Positions 6,451 through 46,813 of a stretch of 64,000 nt of DNA are shown one piece after another. Where the stretch lies: the NCBI GenBank assembly GCA_022710775.1, contig JAKLGH010000004.1, forward strand, positions 9,277 to 73,276, read 5' to 3'. This stretch comes from Patescibacteria group bacterium. Its GTDB lineage: Bacteria; Patescibacteriota; Minisyncoccia; Minisyncoccales; UBA5738. The notes beneath the pieces are model-generated. The model worked only from the letters and a program-made list of their open reading frames with translations. It ran no database searches and was not told the origin of the DNA. Both the position numbers and the translations under genes were made by a program. Position 1 is the stretch's first letter. The number at the start of each line of letters is the position of its first letter.

Positions 6451-6474
6451 CTAAAACATCTTTTATCCTGAAAC

Positions 6475-6501
6475 AAAAAACTCCGTAATACGGAGTTTTT
6501 T
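6475..6501. terminator. Bidirectional terminator hairpin
   Basis: AAAAAA-ctccg-taata-cggag-TTTTTT. Lies between the candidate sRNA (+) and tRNA-Pro (-). Confidence 0.65.
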
Positions 6502-6546
6502 GTTTGTGAATCTACTCATCTGCTCAACACTCATCAACTATCCGAT

Positions 6547-19756: not shown

Positions 19757-19761
19757 ACGGG

Positions 19762-19832
19762 CTATTCGCCTGAGCTATTCAAAGGGAAGGAGTTTTAAAG
19801 CTAAGATCCCTTTTCATAGCCCAAGCGAATAG
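19762..19832 (+). promoter_or_regulatory. Long imperfect hairpin immediately 3' of rpsN
   Basis: Outer 8 bp pair 19762-19769 with 19825-19832. Inner 5 bp + 2x2 loop + 7 bp pair 19774-19787 with 19807-19820. Followed by three CGGGAG repeats. Confidence 0.45.
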
Positions 19833-19878
19833 AACGGGAGTTTGCCGGGAGCGAAAGAGTGACGACCATGCGGGAGAC

Positions 19879-19906
19879 TTGAAAAAAATATTTTTTGTTA
19901 TATAAT
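19879..19906 (+). promoter_or_regulatory. Internal sigma70-like promoter upstream of rpsH
   Basis: TTGAAA, 16 nt, TATAAT, located 12 nt before the rpsH ATG region. Confidence 0.45.
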
Positions 19907-19918
19907 TAAATTCTTCTT

Positions 19919-22128: not shown

Positions 22129-22560
22129 ATGCAGTTAAACCAAATTATCACAATTAACAAGCCCAAGAAATCGAAAAGGATTGGGCGCGGCGGAAAACGC
22201 GGCACTTATTCGGGTCATGGCGGCAAAGGGCAAACAGCAAGATCCGGAAGGAAAATGCGCCCCATCGTCCGCGACATCATCAAAAAATATCCCAAATTAA
22301 GAGGGTATAAGAACCACGCGGTAAGCGTTAAACCTCAAATTATGAATGTTTCAGAGTTAGAGAAGAAATTCCAGAAAGGCGATACCGTGAGCCCCAAAGT
22401 GCTCTATGAGAAAAATCTGACTACTCGCGCCGGAGGCGTATTGAGCGAAGTTAAAATTCTAGGATCGGGAGAGCTGAAGAAAGAACTGCATATCAAAGGA
22501 TGCGTTGTTTCAAAAACCGCCAGAGAAAAAATAGTTAAAGCCGGAGGAACCGTCAAGTAG
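22129..22560 (+). CDS. rplO: 50S ribosomal protein L15
   Basis: 143 aa with RIGRGGKRGTYSGHGGKGQ. Follows rpsE directly, with no rpmD between them. Confidence 0.9.
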   Translation: MQLNQIITINKPKKSKRIGRGGKRGTYSGHGGKGQTARSGRKMRPIVRDIIKKYPKLRGYKNHAVSVKPQIMNVSELEKKFQKGDTVSPKVLYEKNLTTRAGGVLSEVKILGSGELKKELHIKGCVVSKTAREKIVKAGGTVK

Positions 22561-22631
22561 ATCGAGCACGGTTCGCATCTGTTTGGGGCTTTAACCGCCG
22601 CCAGATAAAAAAAATTCGAAAAATCAAAACA

Positions 22632-22687
22632 CGAATGTTTAAAACAAATTCAATGTTTTAAACATTCGGATTTCGGTATTCGGATTT
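22632..22687 (+). repeat. Hairpin + (A/T)TTCGG heptad element, copy 1
   Basis: Perfect 15-bp stem cgaatgtttaaaaca/tgttttaaacattcg (22632-22668), then ATTCGG-ATTTCGG-TATTCGG-ATTT. Ends 6 nt before the secY ATG. Confidence 0.6.
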
Positions 22688-22693
22688 ATTGCC

Positions 22694-23971
22694 ATGTGGT
22701 ACCAACGATTAACTCAAATTTTTAAGATTAAAGACTTGCGAAGCAGGATTCTTTTCATTTTTGGGATATTCGCGCTGGCGCGTTTGATGGCCAATATTCC
22801 CATACCCGGCATTGATTTAGAGAGGCTGCGCATGTTTATGGACCAGTTTCAAAGTTTTAAGCTGCTGGGCGCTTTTACCGGCGGCTCAATGGATAATATG
22901 TCGGTAGCCATGCTTGGTTTGGGGCCGTATATCACCGCGATCATCATTTTACAGCTGCTCACAATGATTTTTCCGTCTTTAGAAAGGATGTATAAGGAAG
23001 AAGGCGAAGCGGGACGCAGTAAATTCAACCAATACGCGAGGATCGCGAGCATTCCTCTCGCGGCCTTGCAAGGATATGCCATGCTGGTTTTGCTTACGCG
23101 TCAAAACGTTGCTCATTTCGATTCACCGATTATTTTATTCGCGGCGCTTGCGACCGTAACGTCCGCGTCCCTGCTTTTGATGTGGCTGGGAGAACTTATC
23201 TCAGAAAAAGGGATCGGGAACGGAGTATCGCTGCTGATCTTTGCCGGCATTATTTCAAGTTTTCCAACCAGTTTGCGCCAGATCATATTTGACTGGGATC
23301 CGACCAAAACCCTTAGCTACATCCTGTTTATGATAGCTTCGGTGGCTATTATTGCCGGGGTTGTTTTGATCAACGAAAGTCGGCGGAACATCCCGGTTTC
23401 TTATGCCAAGCGCGTGAGAGGAAATAAAATGTTCGGAGGAGTTTCCACTTATTTGCCTTTAAATATTAATCCTGCCGGGGTTATACCGATTATTTTCGCT
23501 TTATCGATTTTGCTTTTTCCTTCAATGATAGCCAGTTTCTTGGGCGGATACTCTGGATTTGTGGGGCAGGCGGCAACCGCGGTCAACAATTTTTTCAATA
23601 ACCAGCTTTTTTACGGAATTGCTTACTTTATTCTTGTTGTTTTGTTCACGTATTTCTATACGGCAGTGACTTTTGATCCGAAAAACATTGCCTCAAACCT
23701 CCAGAAAATGGGAGGATTTGTGCCGGGCATCAGGCCGGGAACGCCGACAGCAACCTATATGTACTATATTTTAAACCGGGTTTTGCTGGTAGGCGCCGTG
23801 TTTCTTGGCTTGATTGCCGTTATGCCTTCGATCATCGGTGCCGCTACCCAGGTCAACACATTCTCGTTTATGGTGGGCGGTACTTCGTTATTGATCGCGG
23901 TGAGTGTGATTTTGGAAACAGCACGCCAAATTAACGCCCAATTGCAAATGCGCGAATATGAAACTTTCTAA
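22694..23971 (+). CDS. secY: Preprotein translocase subunit SecY
   Basis: 425 aa, 10-TM pattern, in the canonical position after rplO. Confidence 0.92.
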   Translation: MWYQRLTQIFKIKDLRSRILFIFGIFALARLMANIPIPGIDLERLRMFMDQFQSFKLLGAFTGGSMDNMSVAMLGLGPYITAIIILQLLTMIFPSLERMYKEEGEAGRSKFNQYARIASIPLAALQGYAMLVLLTRQNVAHFDSPIILFAALATVTSASLLLMWLGELISEKGIGNGVSLLIFAGIISSFPTSLRQIIFDWDPTKTLSYILFMIASVAIIAGVVLINESRRNIPVSYAKRVRGNKMFGGVSTYLPLNINPAGVIPIIFALSILLFPSMIASFLGGYSGFVGQAATAVNNFFNNQLFYGIAYFILVVLFTYFYTAVTFDPKNIASNLQKMGGFVPGIRPGTPTATYMYYILNRVLLVGAVFLGLIAVMPSIIGAATQVNTFSFMVGGTSLLIAVSVILETARQINAQLQMREYETF

Positions 23972-25600: not shown

Positions 25601-25606
25601 GCTTAG

Positions 25607-25633
25607 CGCCGCAGAAATGCGGCGTTTGTCTTT
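25607..25633 (+). terminator. Rho-independent terminator after map
   Basis: cgccgca-gaaa-tgcggcg followed by TTTGTCTTT. Confidence 0.65.
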
Positions 25634-28658: not shown

Positions 28659-29192
28659 GTGGCGGAGCAAGTAAAAACCATGGCAAGGTTCGACGAGGGT
28701 TATTTCTACAACCCCACTAAAGGCAACTTAACATTGGATGGGACGCTGGAAGAAATGATGAATTACATGCTGGAGAAACCAGACATCAACTACGAAATCG
28801 TGGTCGGTTGTGATTCGTCTTCCGACGAAGAACCTCATTTTCCCGCGGCGATAGTTATTTTAAGGAAAGGAGCTGGCGGCCGGTTTTTTCTAAAAAAGAT
28901 CACTTATTCAAAAGAAAGGAAATTTTATAACTTCCGCCAGAGGATCCTGGAAGAAACCTTGCTATCTTGCGAGCTGGCCTTGGTTTTAAAAGAGATGCTC
29001 GAAAAAAAGAGAACGGTATGGCCAAAAAATCTTAAATGGAAATTCATCAATATTCATGCCGATGTGGGTGAGCGCGGCTCAACCAAGGAAATGATCAAAG
29101 AAGTGACCGGTTTGATACGAGGCAGCGGTTTTATTCCGATCATTAAACCGTTTTCTTTTGCCGCATCGGCCATTTCGGACCGGTATACCTAA
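28659..29192 (+). CDS. YkuK/DUF458-like RNase H-fold protein
   Basis: FYNPTKG...VVGCDSS...KGAGGRFF...RQRILEET pattern resembles DUF458. The start may be GTG 28659 or ATG 28680. Confidence 0.5.
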   Translation: MAEQVKTMARFDEGYFYNPTKGNLTLDGTLEEMMNYMLEKPDINYEIVVGCDSSSDEEPHFPAAIVILRKGAGGRFFLKKITYSKERKFYNFRQRILEETLLSCELALVLKEMLEKKRTVWPKNLKWKFINIHADVGERGSTKEMIKEVTGLIRGSGFIPIIKPFSFAASAISDRYT

Positions 29193-29319
29193 TCAAGACT
29201 TACGCAGTCGCCCCATCTTCTGCGTTAAAGTGTTCGGGTGCTAGTTGCCAAGCCTTGGCTGGGTTCCGGCGCGCCCGCGCGCTTTGCCTTGAACCTGTGC
29301 CAACTGCGCAAGTCTTGAT
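29192..29319 (+). promoter_or_regulatory. 17-bp inverted repeat enclosing a G+C-rich segment of about 95 nt, directly upstream of alaS
   Basis: atcaagacttAcgcagt (29192-29208) pairs with actgcgCaagtcttgat (29303-19319 region, i.e. 29303-29319), with one mismatch. Spans from the upstream stop codon to 2 nt before ATG 29321. Confidence 0.45.
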
Positions 29320-29320
29320 A

Positions 29321-31093
29321 ATGTATCCTGATAAACAAATGACATCAAAAGACCTTCGTAAAAATTTCTTGGATTATTTCGCGAAACGGGGACACAAGAT
29401 AGTGCCGTCTTCGTCTTTGGTCACAAACGATCCAAGCGTTTTGTTCGCGACGGCCGGCATGCAGCAGTTCAAGCCGTATTATCTGGGCCAGGAGTCGCCA
29501 TACGGTTTGAATGTGGCGAGCTGCCAGAAATGCGTCCGGACTTCGGATATCGATGAAGTCGGAGATCACAGCCATCTGACTTTTTTCGAGATGCTTGGTA
29601 ATTTTTCTTTCGGAGGATACGGCTCAAACTTCAAAGAGGAAGCGATAAAGCTGGCTTACAATTTTATTTTCGCAGAACTGAAATTGCCCCTCCAGGACTC
29701 TTTTTTCACGGTATTCGAGGGAGATGCCGTTGTACCGGCGGATAAAGAATCTGAAGCCATCTGGACTCGAATGGCGGGCAATAGGGCAACGATCCAGCGT
29801 TTCGGCCGGGCTGATAATTTTTGGGGGCCCACCGGGGAATTCGGGCCTTGCGGTCCGACTACGGAAATCCATTACCGGAACACGGAAATCTGGAACATCG
29901 TCTTCAACGAGTATTACCAGGACAAGGACAAGTCTTTGAAACCGCTGCCAAAAAAAGGCATTGATACGGGTATGGGTTTTGAGCGCCTTTTAATGATGGT
30001 TCAGGATAAGCAAACGGTTTATGACACCGATTTGTTTGTGCCGATCATGGAAAAGATACCCGGTACCGACCTGAAGGCGAGAAGAATAGTGGCCGATCAC
30101 ATTAAAAGCGCGGTTTTTCTGATAAGCGACGGCGTTTTGCCTTCCAATCTGGAAAGAGGCTATGTTCTACGGCGTATTTTAAGGAGGGCGATCCGGTATG
30201 GACGGATTTTAGGCCTGACCGGCGATTTTTTGATGCCATTGGCCCAAACGGTAATCTCGATATACCGGGAGGCGTATCTTGACCTAGCCGTCAATGAAGA
30301 CGGCATTCTGACCGCCATTCATGCCGAACAGGAAAAATTCGATAGAGTTATTGATGAAGGGTTACGGGAAGTCAAAGCGCTGGAAAAAGTTTTAACGGAG
30401 GCTGGCGCGGCTTCGATAAAACCGGAGGGTCTTGCGGAGCTTTCGGCCAGCGATATTATGATCAACCGTCTTTTTGATCTTTACCAAAGCAAGGGAATGC
30501 CGCTGGAGCTTGTTTTTGAAGAATTCGACAATGACTCGGTGAAATGCGATAAAGCCGCAATCCAGGCAAGATTTAATGAAAAACTGAAACATCATCAAGA
30601 GATTTCCCGCGCCGGCGCCGAAAAAAAATTCGGGGGCATCGGCGGAACCGCGACCGAGGAAGCGAAAAAATTACATACTGCCGCCCATCTTCTGCATGCG
30701 GCATTAAGAAGAGTGCTGGGAACGCATGTCAAACAAATGGGTTCCGATATCACTTCGGAGCGTTTGCGCTTTGATTTTTCCCATCCGGCAAAAATGACAG
30801 CCGGGGAACTTGCCAAGGTTGAAGACCTGGTTAATTATGCGATCAAAGACAATATCCCGGTCATAAAGGAATTAATGTCCTATGAGGAAGCGATTGCCGG
30901 AGGGGCGCTGGCTTTTTTTAAGGAAAAATATCCCGCCCAGGTTAATGTTTATACCATTAAGGATTATTCCAAAGAGATTTGCGCCGGCCCTCATGCGGAA
31001 CGGACAGGGAGCCTGGGACAATTCCGGATTGTAAAAGAAGAATCATCGGGTGCCGGCGTGAGGCGGATCAAAGCGGTTTTGTCGCCCCGATGA
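29321..31093 (+). CDS. alaS: Alanine--tRNA ligase, short form (no C-Ala domain)
   Basis: TSKDLRKNFLDYFAKRGH N-terminus. Editing-domain HTAAHLLH and CAGPH motifs. Ends just after the editing domain. ATG at 29321 or 29339; the track start 29255 runs through the inverted repeat. Confidence 0.85.
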   Translation: MYPDKQMTSKDLRKNFLDYFAKRGHKIVPSSSLVTNDPSVLFATAGMQQFKPYYLGQESPYGLNVASCQKCVRTSDIDEVGDHSHLTFFEMLGNFSFGGYGSNFKEEAIKLAYNFIFAELKLPLQDSFFTVFEGDAVVPADKESEAIWTRMAGNRATIQRFGRADNFWGPTGEFGPCGPTTEIHYRNTEIWNIVFNEYYQDKDKSLKPLPKKGIDTGMGFERLLMMVQDKQTVYDTDLFVPIMEKIPGTDLKARRIVADHIKSAVFLISDGVLPSNLERGYVLRRILRRAIRYGRILGLTGDFLMPLAQTVISIYREAYLDLAVNEDGILTAIHAEQEKFDRVIDEGLREVKALEKVLTEAGAASIKPEGLAELSASDIMINRLFDLYQSKGMPLELVFEEFDNDSVKCDKAAIQARFNEKLKHHQEISRAGAEKKFGGIGGTATEEAKKLHTAAHLLHAALRRVLGTHVKQMGSDITSERLRFDFSHPAKMTAGELAKVEDLVNYAIKDNIPVIKELMSYEEAIAGGALAFFKEKYPAQVNVYTIKDYSKEICAGPHAERTGSLGQFRIVKEESSGAGVRRIKAVLSPR

Positions 31094-32796: not shown

Positions 32797-32825
32797 TTGA
32801 CTAGTTTGAGGCAATCTGATATATT
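32797..32825 (+). promoter_or_regulatory. Sigma70-like promoter for the infA-rpmJ-alpha operon
   Basis: TTGACT, 17 nt, TATATT. Confidence 0.55.
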
Positions 32826-33415: not shown

Positions 33416-33805
33416 ATGCCACGTCTTCTCGGAGTAAACATTCCAGACAACAAACCTATATTGATTTCTTTGGGTTATATTTACGGAATAGGCCGGCGAT
33501 CGGCTGAACTTGTGTTAAAGGAAGCCAAGATCGATCCTCAAGCCAGGGCGAAAACGCTTACCAGCGAACAGCTGAACAGCCTGCAGGAAATTGTTAAAAA
33601 GAATTACCGCGTTGAAGGAGATTTAAAAAGGGACATCATGATGAATGTAAAGCGCCTGAAGGATATTATGAGCTGGAGGGGAATGCGCCACATGAGAGGG
33701 CTGCCTTGCCGCGGACAAAGGACGAAGACCAATAACCGTACGGTGCGCGGAAATGTCAGAAAGACCGTTGGTTCGGGCAGGAAGCCGGCAGCTACTCCCA
33801 CCTAG
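33416..33805 (+). CDS. rpsM: 30S ribosomal protein S13
   Basis: MPRLLGVNIPDNK N-terminus. 129 aa. Confidence 0.92.
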   Translation: MPRLLGVNIPDNKPILISLGYIYGIGRRSAELVLKEAKIDPQARAKTLTSEQLNSLQEIVKKNYRVEGDLKRDIMMNVKRLKDIMSWRGMRHMRGLPCRGQRTKTNNRTVRGNVRKTVGSGRKPAATPT

Positions 33806-33830
33806 AAATAAATGTTCGAAGCACGAAGCT

Positions 33831-33893
33831 CGAATGTTCGAAACAATTTTTGGAGGAACTTGTTTCGAATATTCGGATTTCGGACATTCGGTT
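33831..33893 (+). repeat. Hairpin + (A/T)TTCGG heptad element, copy 2
   Basis: 16-bp stem cgaatgttcgaaacaa/ttgtttcgaatattcg with a loop containing GGAGG, then ATTCGG-ATTTCGG-ACATTCGG-TTT. A half-copy aatgttcgaagc lies at about 33810. Confidence 0.6.
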
Positions 33894-33959: not shown

Positions 33960-34412
33960 ATGGGTAAAAAGCACGTAGCTACCAAAACAAAAGAAGAGCT
34001 GCTCAAGGAGAGAGATGTGATCGAGGAAAAGACCAAAAAGGAGGTCAAGATCAAAACCCCGTCGCGCATGCGCGAAGGGAGGGTTTACATTTCTTCGTCC
34101 TATAACAATACGATCGTTTCGCTTACCGATGACTTAGGAAACATCCTTTGCTGGAGATCGGCAGGAAGCATCGGTTTCAAGGGTACCAAAAAAGGAACGC
34201 CGTTCGCGGCTTCAAAAGTAGCGGAAGCGGTAGCGGAAGCGTTAAAGAAGATGAATATCGAGAAAGTCCAGGTTTTTGTGCGGGGCATAGGTTCCGGACG
34301 CGATTCGGCCGTTCGTTCATTGGCGGCGCGCGGAGTGGATATTGTTTCAATAAAGGACATTACGCCTATACCGCATAACGGCTGCCGGCCTCGGAAAGTA
34401 AGACGCGTATAA
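33960..34412 (+). CDS. rpsK: 30S ribosomal protein S11
   Basis: 150 aa. RVYISSSYNNTIVSLTD and PHNGCRPRKVRRV. Confidence 0.92.
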   Translation: MGKKHVATKTKEELLKERDVIEEKTKKEVKIKTPSRMREGRVYISSSYNNTIVSLTDDLGNILCWRSAGSIGFKGTKKGTPFAASKVAEAVAEALKKMNIEKVQVFVRGIGSGRDSAVRSLAARGVDIVSIKDITPIPHNGCRPRKVRRV

Positions 34413-36478: not shown

Positions 36479-36829
36479 ATGAATCGAGAAAAATACACAA
36501 TCGACGCATCGGGAAAAGTCCTGGGTAGGCTGGCTGCCGAGATTGCTTTGCTGTTACGCGGAAAAAACAAACAAGGCTTCGTTCCTTATAAAGATGAAGG
36601 CGATTTTGTAACCGTGAAAAACGCGAAGGACGTCAAGGTTTCCGGCAGGAAAATGGACCAAAAAATTTATTACCATTATACCGGTTATACCGGAGGCTTG
36701 CGCAGAACGCCGATTAAGCGGATGCTGCAGAACAAGCCGACGGAAATTTTAAAAAAGGCCGTTTATAGAATGCTTCCAGATAATAAGTTGCGCGACAAAA
36801 TGATCAAACGGCTTAAGTTTGAAGATTAA
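36479..36829 (+). CDS. rplM: 50S ribosomal protein L13
   Basis: 116 aa: GKVLGRLAAEIALLLRGK. Confidence 0.9.
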   Translation: MNREKYTIDASGKVLGRLAAEIALLLRGKNKQGFVPYKDEGDFVTVKNAKDVKVSGRKMDQKIYYHYTGYTGGLRRTPIKRMLQNKPTEILKKAVYRMLPDNKLRDKMIKRLKFED

Positions 36830-36833
36830 TTAC

Positions 36834-37445
36834 ATGACTACTAAAGAAATTAAACCAAAGACCGCGCCGAAGGTGCGCAAGGCGCCTGCCAAGGTTAAAA
36901 AGGAAGCGGAAATAAAAGGACAAGAGCAAAAAGCAATGGCCGAAACGGAAGAAACAAAAAAAACAGCGATGGGGGAGAAGGTTTCTGCCGTCGAGCCTGT
37001 TTCTGCGGAAGAAACCGGCGACTTGGCTGATGAGAACGGAAAAACCCCTAAATCAAACCGCTACTATGAAGCTGTCGGCCGCCGCAAGACCGCAACCGCG
37101 CGCGTGAGGCTTTTTACCAGGGGCGACAAATCTTTTGTTATCAACGACAAACCGCTGGAAAAATATTTTCCGGGTGCGATTTTCAAATCCGTCATTGAAG
37201 CTCCTTTGGTGAAAATGAATATTGTAGATCGCTTCAAGATAACCGCTGTTGTCAAAGGGGGAGGGATCAATGCTCAGGCGGAAGCGATCAGGCACGGAAT
37301 TGCCCGGGCCTTGGTGATGTTTAATCTTGATTTTAAGAAACGCTTGAAAAAATCCGGATACCTGACGCGAGATTCAAGGATGAAGGAAAGGAAAAAGCCC
37401 GGTTTGCGCAAAGCCCGCCGAGCGCCCCAATGGGCCAAACGTTAG
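36834..37445 (+). CDS. rpsI: 30S ribosomal protein S9 (K/E/A-rich N-terminal extension of about 75 aa)
   Basis: C-terminal GGGINAQAEAIRHGIARAL...KARRAPQWAKR. In-frame ATG at 36834. Confidence 0.9.
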   Translation: MTTKEIKPKTAPKVRKAPAKVKKEAEIKGQEQKAMAETEETKKTAMGEKVSAVEPVSAEETGDLADENGKTPKSNRYYEAVGRRKTATARVRLFTRGDKSFVINDKPLEKYFPGAIFKSVIEAPLVKMNIVDRFKITAVVKGGGINAQAEAIRHGIARALVMFNLDFKKRLKKSGYLTRDSRMKERKKPGLRKARRAPQWAKR

Positions 37446-37575
37446 CGAACGTTTGGTACTGAGCCCAGCAGGGCGAATGTGCCGAAAACAGCGAACGTTT
37501 GGTACTGAGCCCAGCAGGGCGAATGTGCCGAAAACAGCGAACGTCTGGTACTGAGCCCAGCAGGGCGAATGTGCC
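37444..37575 (+). repeat. Tandem direct repeat, 3 x 46 nt (third copy truncated or diverged)
   Basis: Units start at 37444, 37490 and 37536: agcgaacgtttggtactgagcccagcagggcgaatgtgccgaaaac. Each can fold as GGUAC-UGA-GCCC-AGCA-GGGC-GAAU-GUGCC. Confidence 0.85.
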
Positions 37576-37595
37576 AAGTGCTAATTTTAAATTAA

Positions 37596-37627
37596 AACCA
37601 CTCCGGAATACGGGGTGGTTTTGTTTT
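37596..37627 (+). terminator. Rho-independent terminator of the rplM-rpsI unit
   Basis: ccactccg-gaata-cggggtgg followed by TTTTGTTTT. Confidence 0.7.
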
Positions 37628-44487: not shown

Positions 44488-45642
44488 TTACCGGTTTAAT
44501 TGCGCAGACCATATTCCGCTGTATTCCACCGGCATGAACCGGCGGTAAAACTCCTTTAGATTTTCAACAGGATCGACATCCGCGAATTCCTCGGGATAGA
44601 ACCACTTAGCCATCTGCTGGAGGGCGAAAAAATTAAAAAAATGGCCAACGCAACCGCTGTGGATCGCGTAAAACCGGCCGTTCTTTACCGCTTTGAGGTC
44701 TTGCCAGCCGGGGCGGCTGGTGTAGCTTTGCAATAATTTTTGCGTTTCTTCTTCGGAAGCGTAAAAACCTGTTCGCATCGAGCCCTCGGTTGCCGGCCAG
44801 TTTCCGCCGGTAATAATGATGATGTCGGGGTCTTTTTTGAAAAGGAATTCCGGATCGATATAGATGCTTTCACCCAGTTTGTAATCGATGATATTTTTTC
44901 CTCCAGCCAGAAGTATTTGCGCGCCCCAATTGTGGAGTTTGTGTACGCCGTCCTCGCCGTAAGTTTGTCCGTATTTTTGCGCTCCGCTGTTTCCTGATTC
45001 GATGTAGACTACCGGTTTTTCCTTGTCGATTATAGCAAGCCTGGATGTTACAATTTCCACTTGCGCGTCTATATAATCATTAATCTCTTTGGTCCTTTCT
45101 TCTTTATTGAACAACTGGCCCAAGACCGAAATTCCTTTTTGCGGGTTTTCCAGGGCGTCGTAGGCCGCGTTGAGAAAAACCATGGGTGCGTTCGCGGCTT
45201 TCAATTTATCAACGATTTTCAACTGCCGCCTAATCATATAGCTGTCCATCAGGACCAAGTCGGGTTTGTATGAGAGTACATCTTCGGGGTTCGTCGCGTC
45301 TTTGGCAATATCGCCTAAAACCGGTTTTTCTTTGAGTGCCGGGAATTTTTCCGTAAATTTTTCATAAGCGTCAAGATCGGAATTTTTAAGATCCGGCCCC
45401 CAGGCCGCGATTTTTCCGGGCGCGTCTTCGCCCAATATCAAAGATAATTCGTAAATATCGGAACTTTTCATCAATACGGTTCTTTGGCAGGGAGTTATGA
45501 AAACGGTTTTGCGGCCTTCCAGGTCAATGATCGATTTTCCGCTATCCGCTATTTGAACCGGTTTTTCGGAAATTTGCGTAAAATATATTGCTCCGCCAAT
45601 GATCAAAAAAATAGAAACTAATGCTACGATTTTTTTGGACAT
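44488..45642 (-). CDS. ABC substrate-binding protein, cluster A (Peripla_BP_2-like), paralog 1
   Basis: N-terminal anchor. PCQRTVLMKSSDIYELSLILG, KPDLVLMD, PGWQDLKAVKNGRFYAI. Confidence 0.75.
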   Translation of the reverse strand: MSKKIVALVSIFLIIGGAIYFTQISEKPVQIADSGKSIIDLEGRKTVFITPCQRTVLMKSSDIYELSLILGEDAPGKIAAWGPDLKNSDLDAYEKFTEKFPALKEKPVLGDIAKDATNPEDVLSYKPDLVLMDSYMIRRQLKIVDKLKAANAPMVFLNAAYDALENPQKGISVLGQLFNKEERTKEINDYIDAQVEIVTSRLAIIDKEKPVVYIESGNSGAQKYGQTYGEDGVHKLHNWGAQILLAGGKNIIDYKLGESIYIDPEFLFKKDPDIIIITGGNWPATEGSMRTGFYASEEETQKLLQSYTSRPGWQDLKAVKNGRFYAIHSGCVGHFFNFFALQQMAKWFYPEEFADVDPVENLKEFYRRFMPVEYSGIWSAQLNR

Positions 45643-45652
45643 ATTATGCGTA

Positions 45653-46813
45653 TTATTTAGAGATTTCGGTGAACCAAGTTCCGCTGTATTCGATGGGCAT
45701 AAAGCGGTTATGGAATTCCTTCAAATTAGCCTCCGGGTTGATATCCGCGAATTCCTCGGGATAGAACCACTTAGCCATCTGCTGGAGGGCGGCGAAAGCG
45801 AAAATATGCATTGTCATGCCGTGATGGATCGCGTAAACCCGGCCGTTCTTTACCGCTTCGAGGTCTTGCCAGCCGGGGCGGTTGGTAAAGCTTTTCAACA
45901 GCTGTTGGGCTTCATCTCCGGACGTGTAATATCCCATTCTCATCGAGTCTTCTACTGTCGGCCAATTGGCCCCGGTGATAATGATCACATCGGGGTTTGA
46001 TTTCAGCAAGTATTCAGGATCAATGGAAAATAATTCACCAGGCAGATCTCCGACGATATTTTTTCCTCCGGCATACTGGATCATTGCTCCCCAACTGGTA
46101 TATTGTCCGTTGACGTCTACTCCCCAAGTGCTGCCATATTGCTTGGCCCCCAAATCTCCGGTTTCCATATATACAACCGGCGCGGTTTTTTCGATCTTGG
46201 CCAGGCGGGATGTCACGATATTTATCTGTCCGTCGACAAAATCGGCAATTTCTTCGGCCCGTTCTTCCTTATTGAACAGCTGGCCCAGGACTGTGATTCC
46301 TTTTTGCTGGTTGGTCAGAATGTCATTGGTTTGGTCCATGAACGCCATTGGCATACCGGCTTCCTTAAGCCGGTCGACGCTTTTGTATTGTCTACGCGTC
46401 ATGAAATTGTCCATTACGATCAGGTCGGGGTTGTAGGACAGAACGTTTTCAGGGTCAAGGGAATCGTTATAGATGCTGCCGACCAAAGGTTTATCCGCCA
46501 AAGAAGGGAATTTTTCGGAATATTTTTTATAAGCGTCGGTATCGGAAGTTTTAATATCTTCTCCCCAGGCCACGATCTTGTCGGCGGTTTGTCCGCCAAG
46601 GACTGCTGAAAGCTCATAGATATCCCGGCTGCGGGGCAGAATAACCTTTTCGCACGGCGTCTTGAAGGTTTTTGTTTCTCCGGAAAGGTCGGTTATCTGT
46701 TTGTTCTGACTTGAAATTTCCGGTGTTGGTTCCGGAGTTTTCGAAGTTGATAAATAAAATAGTCCGGCTGCCGCGGCAGCCAAAACCAAAACAAACGGTA
46801 TTTTTCTGTTCAT
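45653..46813 (-). CDS. ABC substrate-binding protein, cluster A, paralog 2
   Basis: Same architecture as paralog 1. The C-terminal part is nearly identical to it even at nucleotide level. Confidence 0.75.
   Translation of the reverse strand: MNRKIPFVLVLAAAAAGLFYLSTSKTPEPTPEISSQNKQITDLSGETKTFKTPCEKVILPRSRDIYELSAVLGGQTADKIVAWGEDIKTSDTDAYKKYSEKFPSLADKPLVGSIYNDSLDPENVLSYNPDLIVMDNFMTRRQYKSVDRLKEAGMPMAFMDQTNDILTNQQKGITVLGQLFNKEERAEEIADFVDGQINIVTSRLAKIEKTAPVVYMETGDLGAKQYGSTWGVDVNGQYTSWGAMIQYAGGKNIVGDLPGELFSIDPEYLLKSNPDVIIITGANWPTVEDSMRMGYYTSGDEAQQLLKSFTNRPGWQDLEAVKNGRVYAIHHGMTMHIFAFAALQQMAKWFYPEEFADINPEANLKEFHNRFMPIEYSGTWFTEISK

Follow-up and report, generated by a model that had tools for sequence, protein, structure and literature searches.

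Heptad-armed hairpins in two ribosomal protein operons of a Minisyncoccales genome: probable miniatures of an intervening-sequence-like family

We analyzed a 64,000-nucleotide stretch of DNA from a Patescibacteria group bacterium (assembly GCA_022710775.1, contig JAKLGH010000004.1, positions 9,277 to 73,276 of the forward strand; here, the window), in which two hairpins with arms of tandem approximately 7-nt units lie within operons of ribosomal proteins (r-proteins), one between rplO and secY (copy 1) and the other between rpsM and rpsK (copy 2). Sequence comparison identifies them as homologous members of a dispersed, fast-turnover hairpin family that is common to very different genomes. By the same evidence, the family resides in transcribed spacers, and its full-length relatives are cassettes of the intervening-sequence (IVS) type that encode a PF05635 protein. 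We therefore favor, as the probable explanation, that both sites are miniature members, lacking an open reading frame (ORF), of a widespread selfish palindromic family with arms of approximately 7-nt units and PF05635-bearing full-length forms, and that they are co-transcribed with their host genes rather than being operon-specific regulators.

Structure and homology of the two hairpins

The two copies consist of the following parts, numbered by position in the window.

22612-22687, + strand: copy 1, full imperfect hairpin; 5' arm 22612-22646, loop 22647-22653, 3' arm 22654-22687.
22632-22668, + strand: copy 1, apical stem; perfect 15 bp between cgaatgtttaaaaca (22632-22646) and tgttttaaacattcg (22654-22668), with the 7-nt loop aattcaa.
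22664-22687, + strand: copy 1, 3' outer arm, ATTCGG ATTTCGG TATTCGG ATTT, its TTCGG units 7 and 8 nt apart.
33816-33891, + strand: copy 2, full imperfect hairpin; 5' arm 33816-33846 (TCGAAGcaCGAAGcTCGAATGTTCGAAACAA), apex 33847-33859, 3' arm 33860-33891 (TTGTTTCGAATATTCGGaTTTCGgaCaTTCGG).

A first-pass annotation of this DNA had described copy 1 as a perfect 15-bp stem followed by ATTCGG-ATTTCGG-TATTCGG-ATTT and ending 6 nt before the secY start, all of which can be read directly from the sequence. It had also treated the heptads as a tail separate from the hairpin. Folding gave a different picture: the heptads are the outer 3' arm of one longer hairpin and pair with upstream degenerate heptads that contain CGAA (aaaTTCGAAaaATCaAAA in copy 1 and TCGAAGcaCGAAGc in copy 2). 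In copy 1, the partners of the outer arm are the degenerate 5' units aaaTTCGAAaaATCaAAAca (22612-22631), and the arm itself agrees with the family consensus ...TTCGGATTTCGGATTTCGGATTT of alignment A3 (see below). The second copy reported in the rpsM-rpsK spacer, with the same stem start, the same 3' junction, and a third ATTCGG, was likewise read from the sequence, with CGAATGTT at 33831, ATTCGGATTTCGG at 33871-33883, and the third ATTCGG at 33886-33891.

Both copies follow one unit design, (N)CGAA(N2-3) in the 5' arm and the complement TTCG(G/A)... in the 3' arm. Successive units lie 7-8 nt from one another and form tandem heptamers in the stem. The stem comprises approximately 30 bp, G:U pairs included (30 and 32 in folds of the whole spacers of copies 1 and 2, respectively), and is interrupted by periodic internal loops. 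The apical loops measure 7 nt in copy 1 and 13 nt in copy 2, and neither contains an ORF. The minimum free energy (MFE) of copy 1 was -32.1 kcal/mol for the sense RNA versus -29.8 kcal/mol for the antisense RNA (z = -6.1), and that of copy 2 was -31.5 kcal/mol for the + strand versus -24.9 kcal/mol for the - strand (z = -4.8); 0 of 200 shuffles folded as well as copy 1 or copy 2. It is because of the G:U pairs that both copies are more stable as sense than as antisense RNA. Between copy 1 and copy 2, TA is replaced by CG in the 5' arm of the inner stem with a complementary change in the 3' arm, and the pairing of the inner stem has therefore been kept.

As GC content governed the outcome when MFE was scanned along the window in a sliding frame, inverted-repeat finders were used instead. 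The two copies ranked as the longest (I1, copy 1) and third-longest (I3, copy 2) local inverted repeats of the window, and the remaining strong local hairpins were ordinary terminators. A 13-mer common to both copies was not significant alone, and matches with two mismatches occurred at chance level.

The homology of the two copies, claimed in the first-pass annotation, is supported. Covariance model R1 was built from 15 copies, none of them from the window, and was run with the search filters off. It found copy 2 at 43.7 bits (E = 4.7e-7) and copy 1 at 32.3/29.8 bits (E = 8.7e-5); these were the only significant sites in the 64-kb window, where the next best scored 13.3 bits (E = 0.5). The two copies also share an alignment consensus. 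Alignment A3, which brings together CPR (candidate phyla radiation) copies, the window copies, and phage contigs of 59-64% GC, has the consensus AAATCCGAAGCACGAAA.TCGAAATCCGAAACAAAT...ATTTGTTTCGAATTTCGGATTTCGGATTT, including the irregular CGAAGCACGAA. Copy 2 has this irregular motif and the core GAAACAA/TTGTTTC in common with CPR and phage-contig copies, and CGAAGCACGAA, GAAAGAAATCC, and GAAACAA/TTGTTTC recur in genomes ranging from 26 to 66% GC.

A dispersed hairpin family in transcribed spacers

We next examined 80 loci around secY from related Minisyncoccales genomes, annotated by tblastn. The training set of R1 included loci L071 (alaS|unknown spacer) and L075 (S19|L22), and the model detected members at an E value of approximately 1e-4 or better in eight more of the 80 loci: L012 (S5|L15), L070 (adk|map), L037, and L006 (after galT) and, more weakly, L073, L051, L032, and L015. 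Hairpins of the CGAA/TTCG type were found in the S5|L15, adk|map, L22|S3, alaS|unknown, and S19|L22 spacers, after galT, and in the L15|secY spacer of L066. Nested heptad families were seen in L012, L037, and L070. The proposal that the element is a repeat resembling REP (repetitive extragenic palindromic) sequences or MITEs (miniature inverted-repeat transposable elements) thus holds to the extent that the copies belong to a dispersed family of structured repeats in other genomes.

The position of the elements was not conserved. In the nearest species (L005, 92% SecY identity), the rplO-secY spacer was similar in length and unrelated in sequence, and the copy 2 element was absent from the rpsM-rpsK junction in the few relatives whose spacer was covered. 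Many relatives had essentially no rplO-secY spacer. Loci L020 and L023, whose secY DNA is 91% identical, had a 10-nt spacer and a hairpin of approximately 120 nt, respectively. When filled and empty spacers were compared (L023 with L020 and the window with L005), the whole spacer differed and no target duplication was readable. The first-pass annotation had looked to syntenic spacers and to further copies to judge the element: it is absent from the syntenic spacers examined, while many copies exist elsewhere.

The two copies belong to an abundant structural class, which we counted over the window and 78 loci outside it. Unbranched hairpins of at least 18 bp were held by 174 of 413 spacers of 40-260 nt. 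Outside the window there were 168 such hairpins, spread over 53 of the 78 loci, with up to 15 in a single 21-kb locus. Long hairpins were found throughout the S10-spc-alpha cluster, with each of its spacers represented, and about as often in adjoining non-ribosomal spacers. They fill their spacers, with a median start 4 nt after the stop codon and a median end 11 nt before the start codon. Where the arms were tandem-periodic, the period was 7 nt in 48 of 56 5' arms and 47 of 56 3' arms, irrespective of the unit sequence. The hairpin sequences fall into several families per genome, some of them common to several genomes; in alignment A2, the copies align over their full length, loop included, with six copies in one genome and two in another.

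The arms are A-rich and then T-rich on both strands (A, 0.39/0.29; T, 0.27/0.38), with the AC-rich arm coming first in 113 cases versus 29. This rule is a property of palindromes on both strands and not an orientation; of the properties seen, it is the one in favor of a terminator-like logic. G:U pairs showed a modest excess on the sense over the antisense strand, with 495 versus 432 in the CPR set and 191 versus 144 in the high-GC set. The data suggest RNA-level selection on the hairpins.

Several features of the hairpins in relatives deserve separate mention. Many elements end in a small extra stem-loop with a GNRA-like loop that abuts the downstream ATG. It reads cttttgcRRAgcaaaag in L015, L066, L071, and L082 and agcgaagcgc in L023, L038, L044, L063, and L077, in both sets 0-4 nt before start codons, and in L023 a single 3' stem-loop module precedes two different genes, those of L15 and SecY. 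The stem-loop looks like a conserved end module of the elements that is integrated with the start codon. In the TAACAATTGAC family (L071:2871-18303 plus L048; alignment A2), six of eight aligned copies start with TAA. The TAA of the L15|secY copy was checked and is the stop codon of the upstream gene; it pairs with TTA just 5' of the downstream ATG. Each 9-nt unit of this family retains one mismatch (A.A or C.T), and the palindromes are never perfect. A segment of a different kind, with 91-nt inverted repeats (90% identical) around approximately 1.65 kb, lies near the r-protein operon of a Paceibacter single-cell genome (L014:7165-8996) and is probably an unrelated insertion sequence.

Copies were also found beyond the CPR. 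Pattern scans of viral and metagenome contigs returned at least 133 and at least 124 matches, respectively, many of which would be expected by chance alone. Among the matches listed, 44 of 133 viral and 63 of 124 metagenome sites were 3' arms of long hairpins built on the same plan. These hairpins lay mostly on contigs of 50-66% GC, the element itself having approximately 40% GC, and of their flanking gene pairs, again among the matches listed, 53 ran co-directionally, 13 converged, and 4 diverged. Element copies in hosts of 55-66% GC include those in late operons of phage contigs, where the contexts were portal, capsid, head-tail adaptor, and tail genes. The contexts in ordinary operons were a microcompartment (BMC) operon of the Planctomycete/Verrucomicrobia type, murB-ddl, birA-coaX, and cmk-plsC; those of the BMC, murB-ddl, and birA-coaX type belong to Verrucomicrobiota. 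The best-matching metagenome locus among the matches listed, L260, has a 26-nt perfect match and comes from a different, high-GC organism. On this contig (L260:9480-9680), CGAA/TTCG heptads are nested within heptad arms of the GAGCTAT/ATAGCTC type. Searched by BLAST against PLSDB plasmids and cultured phages, the hairpins matched a single Vibrio phage, weakly, and nothing else.

The full-length forms emerged from a search for arm arrays separated by more than a loop. Five loci (L313, L317, L324, L325, and L327) have an insert of 420-490 nt enclosed by heptad arms of the CGAA type, which pair over 39-69 bp, and the insert encoded a PF05635 protein in all five of the CGAA-family cases examined. 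Conversely, all three PF05635 genes among the viral and metagenome loci examined were flanked by CGAA arms, as were two found via homologs. In full-length members the PF05635 ORF is co-oriented with the host transcript. A single BMC operon of L327 ("Candidatus Angelobacter," Verrucomicrobiota) contained one ORF-bearing element together with three ORF-less array pairs. Three distant PF05635 genes on phage contigs (32-37% identity) had inverted tandem arrays of approximately 7-nt units alongside, with the differing units GATTTTT, AAATCGN, and GATTGCG; these arrays were read by eye from the flanks, as automatic arm extraction did not isolate them. Terminal inverted repeats are therefore common to the window miniatures and to a longer, ORF-bearing element, a feature of MITEs.

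The arrays also affect annotation. ORF calls at L324:250-735, L313:1050-1580, and L325:10001-10522 run through the heptad arrays, and gene callers thus translate the heptads as spurious N-terminal extensions of PF05635 proteins, for example ...RNPKSEIRNPK.... The called lengths of database "four helix bundle proteins" (150-176 amino acids) probably include translated arm repeats. Hairpin-rich spacers can, in turn, be mistaken for regulatory RNAs or microRNA-like hairpins.

Host operons, proposed consequences, and rival explanations

By SecY, the relatives of the window are metagenome-assembled genomes of Nealson-, Staskawicz-, and Wildermuthbacteria, and the host belongs to the Minisyncoccales within the Patescibacteria (CPR). 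Contig DAOTDI010000004.1 (GCA_035453565.1) and JGI and Logan contigs are 100% identical to the window DNA. Pfam assigns the genes flanking the two copies to L15, SecY, S13, and S11, in agreement with the r-protein setting given in the first-pass annotation. The gene order is ...S5-L15-SecY-Adk-Map, followed between map and infA by GT2-GalT-TIM-YqgF-AlaRS-unknown and then by IF1-L36-S13-S11-S4-RpoA-L17-L13-S9. The neighboring features are as follows.

22129-22560, + strand: rplO (L15), 5' neighbor of copy 1; PF00828; stop codon 22558-22560, 51 nt 5' of the hairpin base.
22694-23971, + strand: secY, 3' neighbor of copy 1; PF00344; ATG at 22694, 6 nt past the hairpin.
33416-33805, + strand: rpsM (S13), 5' neighbor of copy 2; PF00416; stop codon 33803-33805, 10 nt 5' of the hairpin base.
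33960-34412, + strand: rpsK (S11), 3' neighbor of copy 2; PF00411; ATG at 33960.
25605-25626, + strand: canonical intrinsic terminator directly after map (terminator scan), closing the S10-spc-secY-adk-map unit.
37593-37623, + strand: canonical intrinsic terminator after rpsI (terminator scan).
32797-32825: promoter-like site 5' of infA, which with the terminator at 37593-37623 brackets the unit holding copy 2.

Copy 1 is internal to its transcription unit, because the terminator at 25605-25626 marks the end of that unit after map. More generally, both elements lie inside transcription units, since terminators follow map and rpsI and a promoter-like site precedes infA. A further ordinary operon-end terminator lies at 6471-6505. 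The 6 nt between the copy 1 hairpin and the secY ATG read attgcc, the SecY start, MWYQ, is conserved among relatives, and in the predicted fold weak outer pairs between 22600-22610 and 22689-22700 would engage the secY AUG as well. An A/U-rich leader of 68 nt separates the copy 2 hairpin from the rpsK ATG. No Shine-Dalgarno-like (SD-like) sequences were found 5' of genes in the r-protein operons (window positions 13000-36500), where the leaders are A-rich, G-poor, and unstructured. The window contains no transposase gene, and an Rfam scan found no rRNA in it.

Other observations on these operons are recorded here. The rpmD gene (L30) is absent between those of S5 and L15. The unknown gene of the map-infA block encodes 456 amino acids without a Pfam match, and the TIM-YqgF-AlaRS-unknown series is unchanged in place and order in L005, L046, L048, and L071, the relatives checked. 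At 29181-29330, a long-range inverted repeat with 28-nt arms 94 nt apart extends from the end of the YqgF-like gene to the alaS leader. The whole 128-nt spacer before alaS folds as a 46-bp domain (z = -4.1), which may be an alaS leader structure. Three tandem copies (100%, 100%, and 89% identical) of the 46-nt unit AGCGAACGTTTGGTACTGAGCCCAGCAGGGCGAATGTGCCGAAAAC occupy 37444-37581; the array begins at the rpsI stop codon (S9 gene, 36819-37445), with the terminator at 37593-37623 downstream of it. Two tandem paralogous genes for periplasmic binding proteins lie at 44488-46813, with 71-78% DNA identity over the aligned segments and FecCD/ABC transporter genes downstream.

The spacer between rpsN (S14) and rpsH (S8), at 19757-19918, holds a hairpin with a 26-bp stem (19762-19832) that is not of the heptad type and is kept, with compensatory changes, in L005. 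A strong promoter-like site, TTGAAA-16-TATAAT (19879-19906), follows it just 5' of rpsH. The S14|S8 spacer is among those most often bearing a hairpin in relatives (13 of 61). The hairpin has no Rfam match and is a candidate conserved cis-regulatory RNA, possibly a site of S8 autoregulation.

According to our preferred reading, full-length members would carry between the same arms a PF05635 gene, encoding the four-helix-bundle "23S rRNA intervening-sequence protein" (S23p), and we infer that the window copies derive from such cassettes by internal deletion. The elements would settle in the transcribed spacers of long, dense operons and also on phage-like contigs, with fast turnover between species. 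The window copies would be co-transcribed with rplO-secY and rpsM-rpsK and would form in the mRNA a hairpin of approximately 30 bp with periodic internal loops. Since their closest known relatives, the IVSs of rRNA, are RNase III substrates, the stems are by analogy predicted to be substrates too, and RNase III would cut the polycistronic mRNAs at both the rplO|secY and the rpsM|rpsK junctions. A processing signal, one of the roles raised in the first-pass annotation, is plausible. An uncut stem would block 3' exonucleases. Copy 1 should, in addition, depress independent initiation on secY, because a hairpin of -32 kcal/mol ends 6 nt before the AUG in a host without SD sequences. Most likely, the elements are selfish or near-neutral and are tolerated because they are self-contained, not having evolved as regulators of these operons. 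An operon-specific role in the rplO-secY or rpsM-rpsK operons is not supported.

Several points weigh against this reading. The arms are low-complexity tandem units, and part of the similarity could be convergent. Neither a target-site duplication nor a nucleotide-exact empty site was recovered from the window and the relatives compared. Only two copies are present in 64 kb of the source genome, and there is no rnc gene, which encodes RNase III, within the window. PF05635 is, to our knowledge, not a known transposase. Searches of the window and the 80 Minisyncoccales loci found no PF05635 gene and no element with matching arms around an ORF; it is thus Verrucomicrobiota and metagenome contigs that connect the miniatures with the full-length forms. 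The strand asymmetry of G:U pairs is weak (pooled z of approximately 3, by hand arithmetic), and class-wide the sense RNA was not more stable than the antisense RNA (82 versus 91).

The most interesting functional alternative is a domesticated device for translational coupling, in which the hairpin bridges stop and start, and the terminating ribosome melts the stem base and frees the SD-less initiation region, keeping the cistrons equimolar. It is kept alive by the stop-to-start bridging seen in relatives, where 72 of 168 hairpins begin no more than 3 nt from the stop codon, 90 of 168 end within 12 nt of the start codon, and 46 do both. In the TAACAATTGAC family, moreover, the TAA that opens six of eight copies is, in the rplO-secY copy, the upstream stop codon, and the end lies 4-8 nt before the ATG. 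The lack of SD sequences in the window genome and a niche in long operons that need fixed stoichiometry would also suit such a device. The window copies themselves fit it poorly, as 51 nt separate the rplO stop from copy 1 and 68 nt lie between copy 2 and rpsK. Many relatives manage with spacers of 0-10 nt, and the same geometry is expected if selection trims spare spacer around a selfish insert. We therefore consider coupling an unlikely explanation. A transcription attenuator or (bidirectional) terminator is less probable again. The A-rich and U-rich arms with a GC clamp every 7 nt would offer serial "stem + UUU" registers, which would lower secY-adk-map relative to the r-proteins and, in phages, the genes after the capsid gene. 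The A-rich-then-T-rich order on both strands is otherwise typical of bidirectional terminators, and among the matches listed only 4 of 70 contexts were divergent and 13 lay between convergent genes. The terminator scan, in addition, picked out the inner stem of copy 1 as terminator-like on the - strand only. On the + strand it called neither copy, both of which fail the sense-strand test for a stem plus T run, and the operon ends have ordinary terminators of their own (25605-25626, 37593-37623, and 6471-6505). Up to 15 hairpins within one r-protein operon of relatives are incompatible with appreciable termination at each, and copy 2 divides S13 from S11, which are needed in equal amounts. The attenuation signal suggested in the first-pass annotation thus lacks a canonical sense-strand intrinsic terminator, and a role as r-protein attenuator is not supported, given the non-synteny and the other contexts of the family.

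It is also improbable, to a still greater degree, that the family is not mobile at all and that slippage generates heptads in AT-rich spacers, which template switching (quasi-palindrome correction) then mirrors, the similarity being convergence. Such a process would account for arms of simple tandem units whose number varies between copies, as heptamer number does among Coxiella strains (PMC4990558), and for the periodic mismatches that persist in the arms. It does not explain the full-length similarity, loops included, of six copies in one genome and two in another, nor the irregular motifs CGAAGCACGAA, GAAAGAAATCC, and GAAACAA/TTGTTTC shared across genomes of 26-66% GC. The presence of elements of approximately 40% GC inside hosts of 55-66% GC and the specific association with PF05635 cassettes likewise argue against it. 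Least credible is an operon-specific cis-regulatory RNA controlling secY and rpsK, either through r-protein autoregulation or as the site of an RNA-binding protein, for example, a CsrA-like protein on the GGA of the 3' arms. The elements do lie within r-protein operons, directly upstream of or between cistrons, GGA is repeated in their 3' arms, and heptamer arrays near start codons in Beggiatoaceae have been proposed as binding sites of post-transcriptional regulators (PMC4679880). Yet the nearest relative lacks the copy 1 element in its syntenic spacer, and no family copy found in other relatives lies at either junction, the L15|secY hairpin of L066 aside. Phages and unrelated operons contain members of the family too, and other families of the hairpin class have quite different units without GGA. 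This explanation is already largely refuted by the lack of synteny, and the protein-binding site of this operon that the first-pass annotation had proposed is likewise not supported. No Rfam leader family matches the element. Scans of the window at gathering and E-value thresholds returned only tRNAs and spurious microRNA-precursor matches, with no r-protein leader and no Mu-gpT-DE-like family; an r-protein autoregulatory leader was accordingly rejected as an identity of the element, the syntenic spacer of the nearest species being unrelated.

Relation to known elements

Our preferred reading, a selfish family with PF05635-bearing full-length forms, places the window copies among mobile palindromes, and it has a more ambitious but doubtful extension. 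Heptad-armed hairpins would then form a cross-phylum IVS-like class (in Patescibacteria, Verrucomicrobiota, and their phages) occupying rRNA and the intercistronic spacers of the most transcribed operons. The 7-nt arms would be a recognition array for a pentameric (Avd-like) PF05635 protein acting in mobility, and the stems would be RNase III punctuation on which SD-less hosts depend for the cutting and translational coupling of r-protein cistrons. If true, this would assign PF05635/S23p a function and provide a model of IVS mobility, both open since 1990; the rRNA IVSs and the four-helix-bundle S23p protein have been known for decades without a function or a mobility mechanism. The data suggest that IVSs are one face of a much larger family with members in mRNA spacers, abundant ORF-less miniatures, and a diagnostic 7-nt periodicity of the arms. 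With the periodicity and the miniatures as handles, the family lends itself to comparative genomics and to simple assays of binding and of RNase III cleavage. In the universal r-protein operon, some ultra-small CPR genomes have 10-15 such hairpins, which bears on how organisms without SD sequences transcribe, cut, and translate this operon.

The literature searched contained no description of heptad-armed hairpins, IVS-like elements, or miniatures in protein-coding operons, nor one under hairpin repeats of CPR, Planctomycetes, or Verrucomicrobia, but its coverage is incomplete and a prior description is possible. In full-text searches, the repeat strings matched only unrelated primers.

REPs are palindromes of 20-40 bp with a GTAG or CGTC tag that are linked to RAYT transposases (PMC3733652). 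Like the present family, REPs and REPINs are dispersed extragenic palindromes that occur chiefly after genes, in spacers whose flanking genes are co-directional or convergent, form transcribed hairpins, and vary between species (PMC3733652). In contrast, the family elements measure 70-140 nt, have no GTAG or CGTC tag and tandem-heptad arms, and are linked to PF05635 and not to RAYT. The window elements, at approximately 75 nt and with neither tag at either end, were therefore rejected as REPs. The Correia elements of Neisseria and ERIC (enterobacterial repetitive intergenic consensus) sequences are also non-autonomous palindromic inserts in transcribed intergenic regions, and their hairpins are processed (by RNase III in the case of Correia) or alter cistron stability. 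They derive from or are mobilized by transposases and make target-site duplications, whereas neither a transposase link nor a target-site duplication was recovered for the window family; there is no sequence similarity, and Correia and ERIC elements lack the heptad architecture. Phage T7 has RNase III sites between the cistrons of long, highly expressed operons; these are imperfect hairpins that contain internal loops, and their cleavage leaves stabilizing 3' hairpins. The phage copies of the present family similarly lie in late structural operons. The T7 sites, however, are unique, conserved, and functional and do not form a dispersed cross-phylum repeat family.

Direct repeats of the heptamer TAACTGA are found in Beggiatoaceae, Cyanobacteria, and Bacteroidetes a few nucleotides before start codons, including those in r-protein operons; canonical ribosome-binding sites are few in these genomes, and the way the repeats are distributed points to horizontal spread (PMC4679880). 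They differ from the present elements in having another unit, no mirrored arm and hence no hairpin, and no reported link to PF05635. Some other candidates were set aside. TIGR (tandem interspaced guide RNA) arrays, considered because TIGR-Tas occurs in CPR, consist of 36-nt units with box C/D-like motifs beside a tas gene (PMC12045711); the elements here have a 7-nt period and form one hairpin each, and no Nop-domain gene is nearby. Integron attC sites, considered because they lie between co-directional ORFs, were rejected by inspection, as the elements have no RYYYAAC/GTTRRRY core sites and their hosts are essential operons. A parS or Noc site in the inner palindrome was also rejected by inspection, the half-site order being reversed.

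The closest known relatives are the S23p/PF05635 IVSs in the 23S rRNA of Coxiella burnetii, Leptospira, and others. The Coxiella IVS is a selfish 428-nt element with an S23p (PF05635) ORF and an inverted-repeat stem; tandem heptamers of strain-variable number lie beside its processing site, and it is excised in vitro by RNase III (PMC4990558). In CPR, 23S_rRNA_IVP ORFs occur in rRNA genes, as do numerous short insertions, other than introns, at known IVS sites (PMC11270868). IVSs in general are regarded as selfish and excised by RNase III (PMC4990558; PMC11270868). The window copies resemble them in the inverted repeats that border the element, the long stem, and the tandem units of the 7-nt type in the stem region, which in IVSs are heptamers of variable number. 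Residence in very highly transcribed units and a sporadic, as-if-horizontal distribution are further likenesses; a co-oriented PF05635 ORF is shared via the full-length family members only, the window copies being ORF-less. The differences are that the window copies lie in intercistronic spacers of mRNA (rplO|secY and rpsM|rpsK) rather than at the tips of 23S (or 16S) rRNA helices, that they are 75 nt long without an ORF as opposed to about 430 nt, and that their family has a CGAAAT-type unit instead of GACAGAT. We thus place the element as a miniature, mRNA-resident, IVS-like palindromic element.

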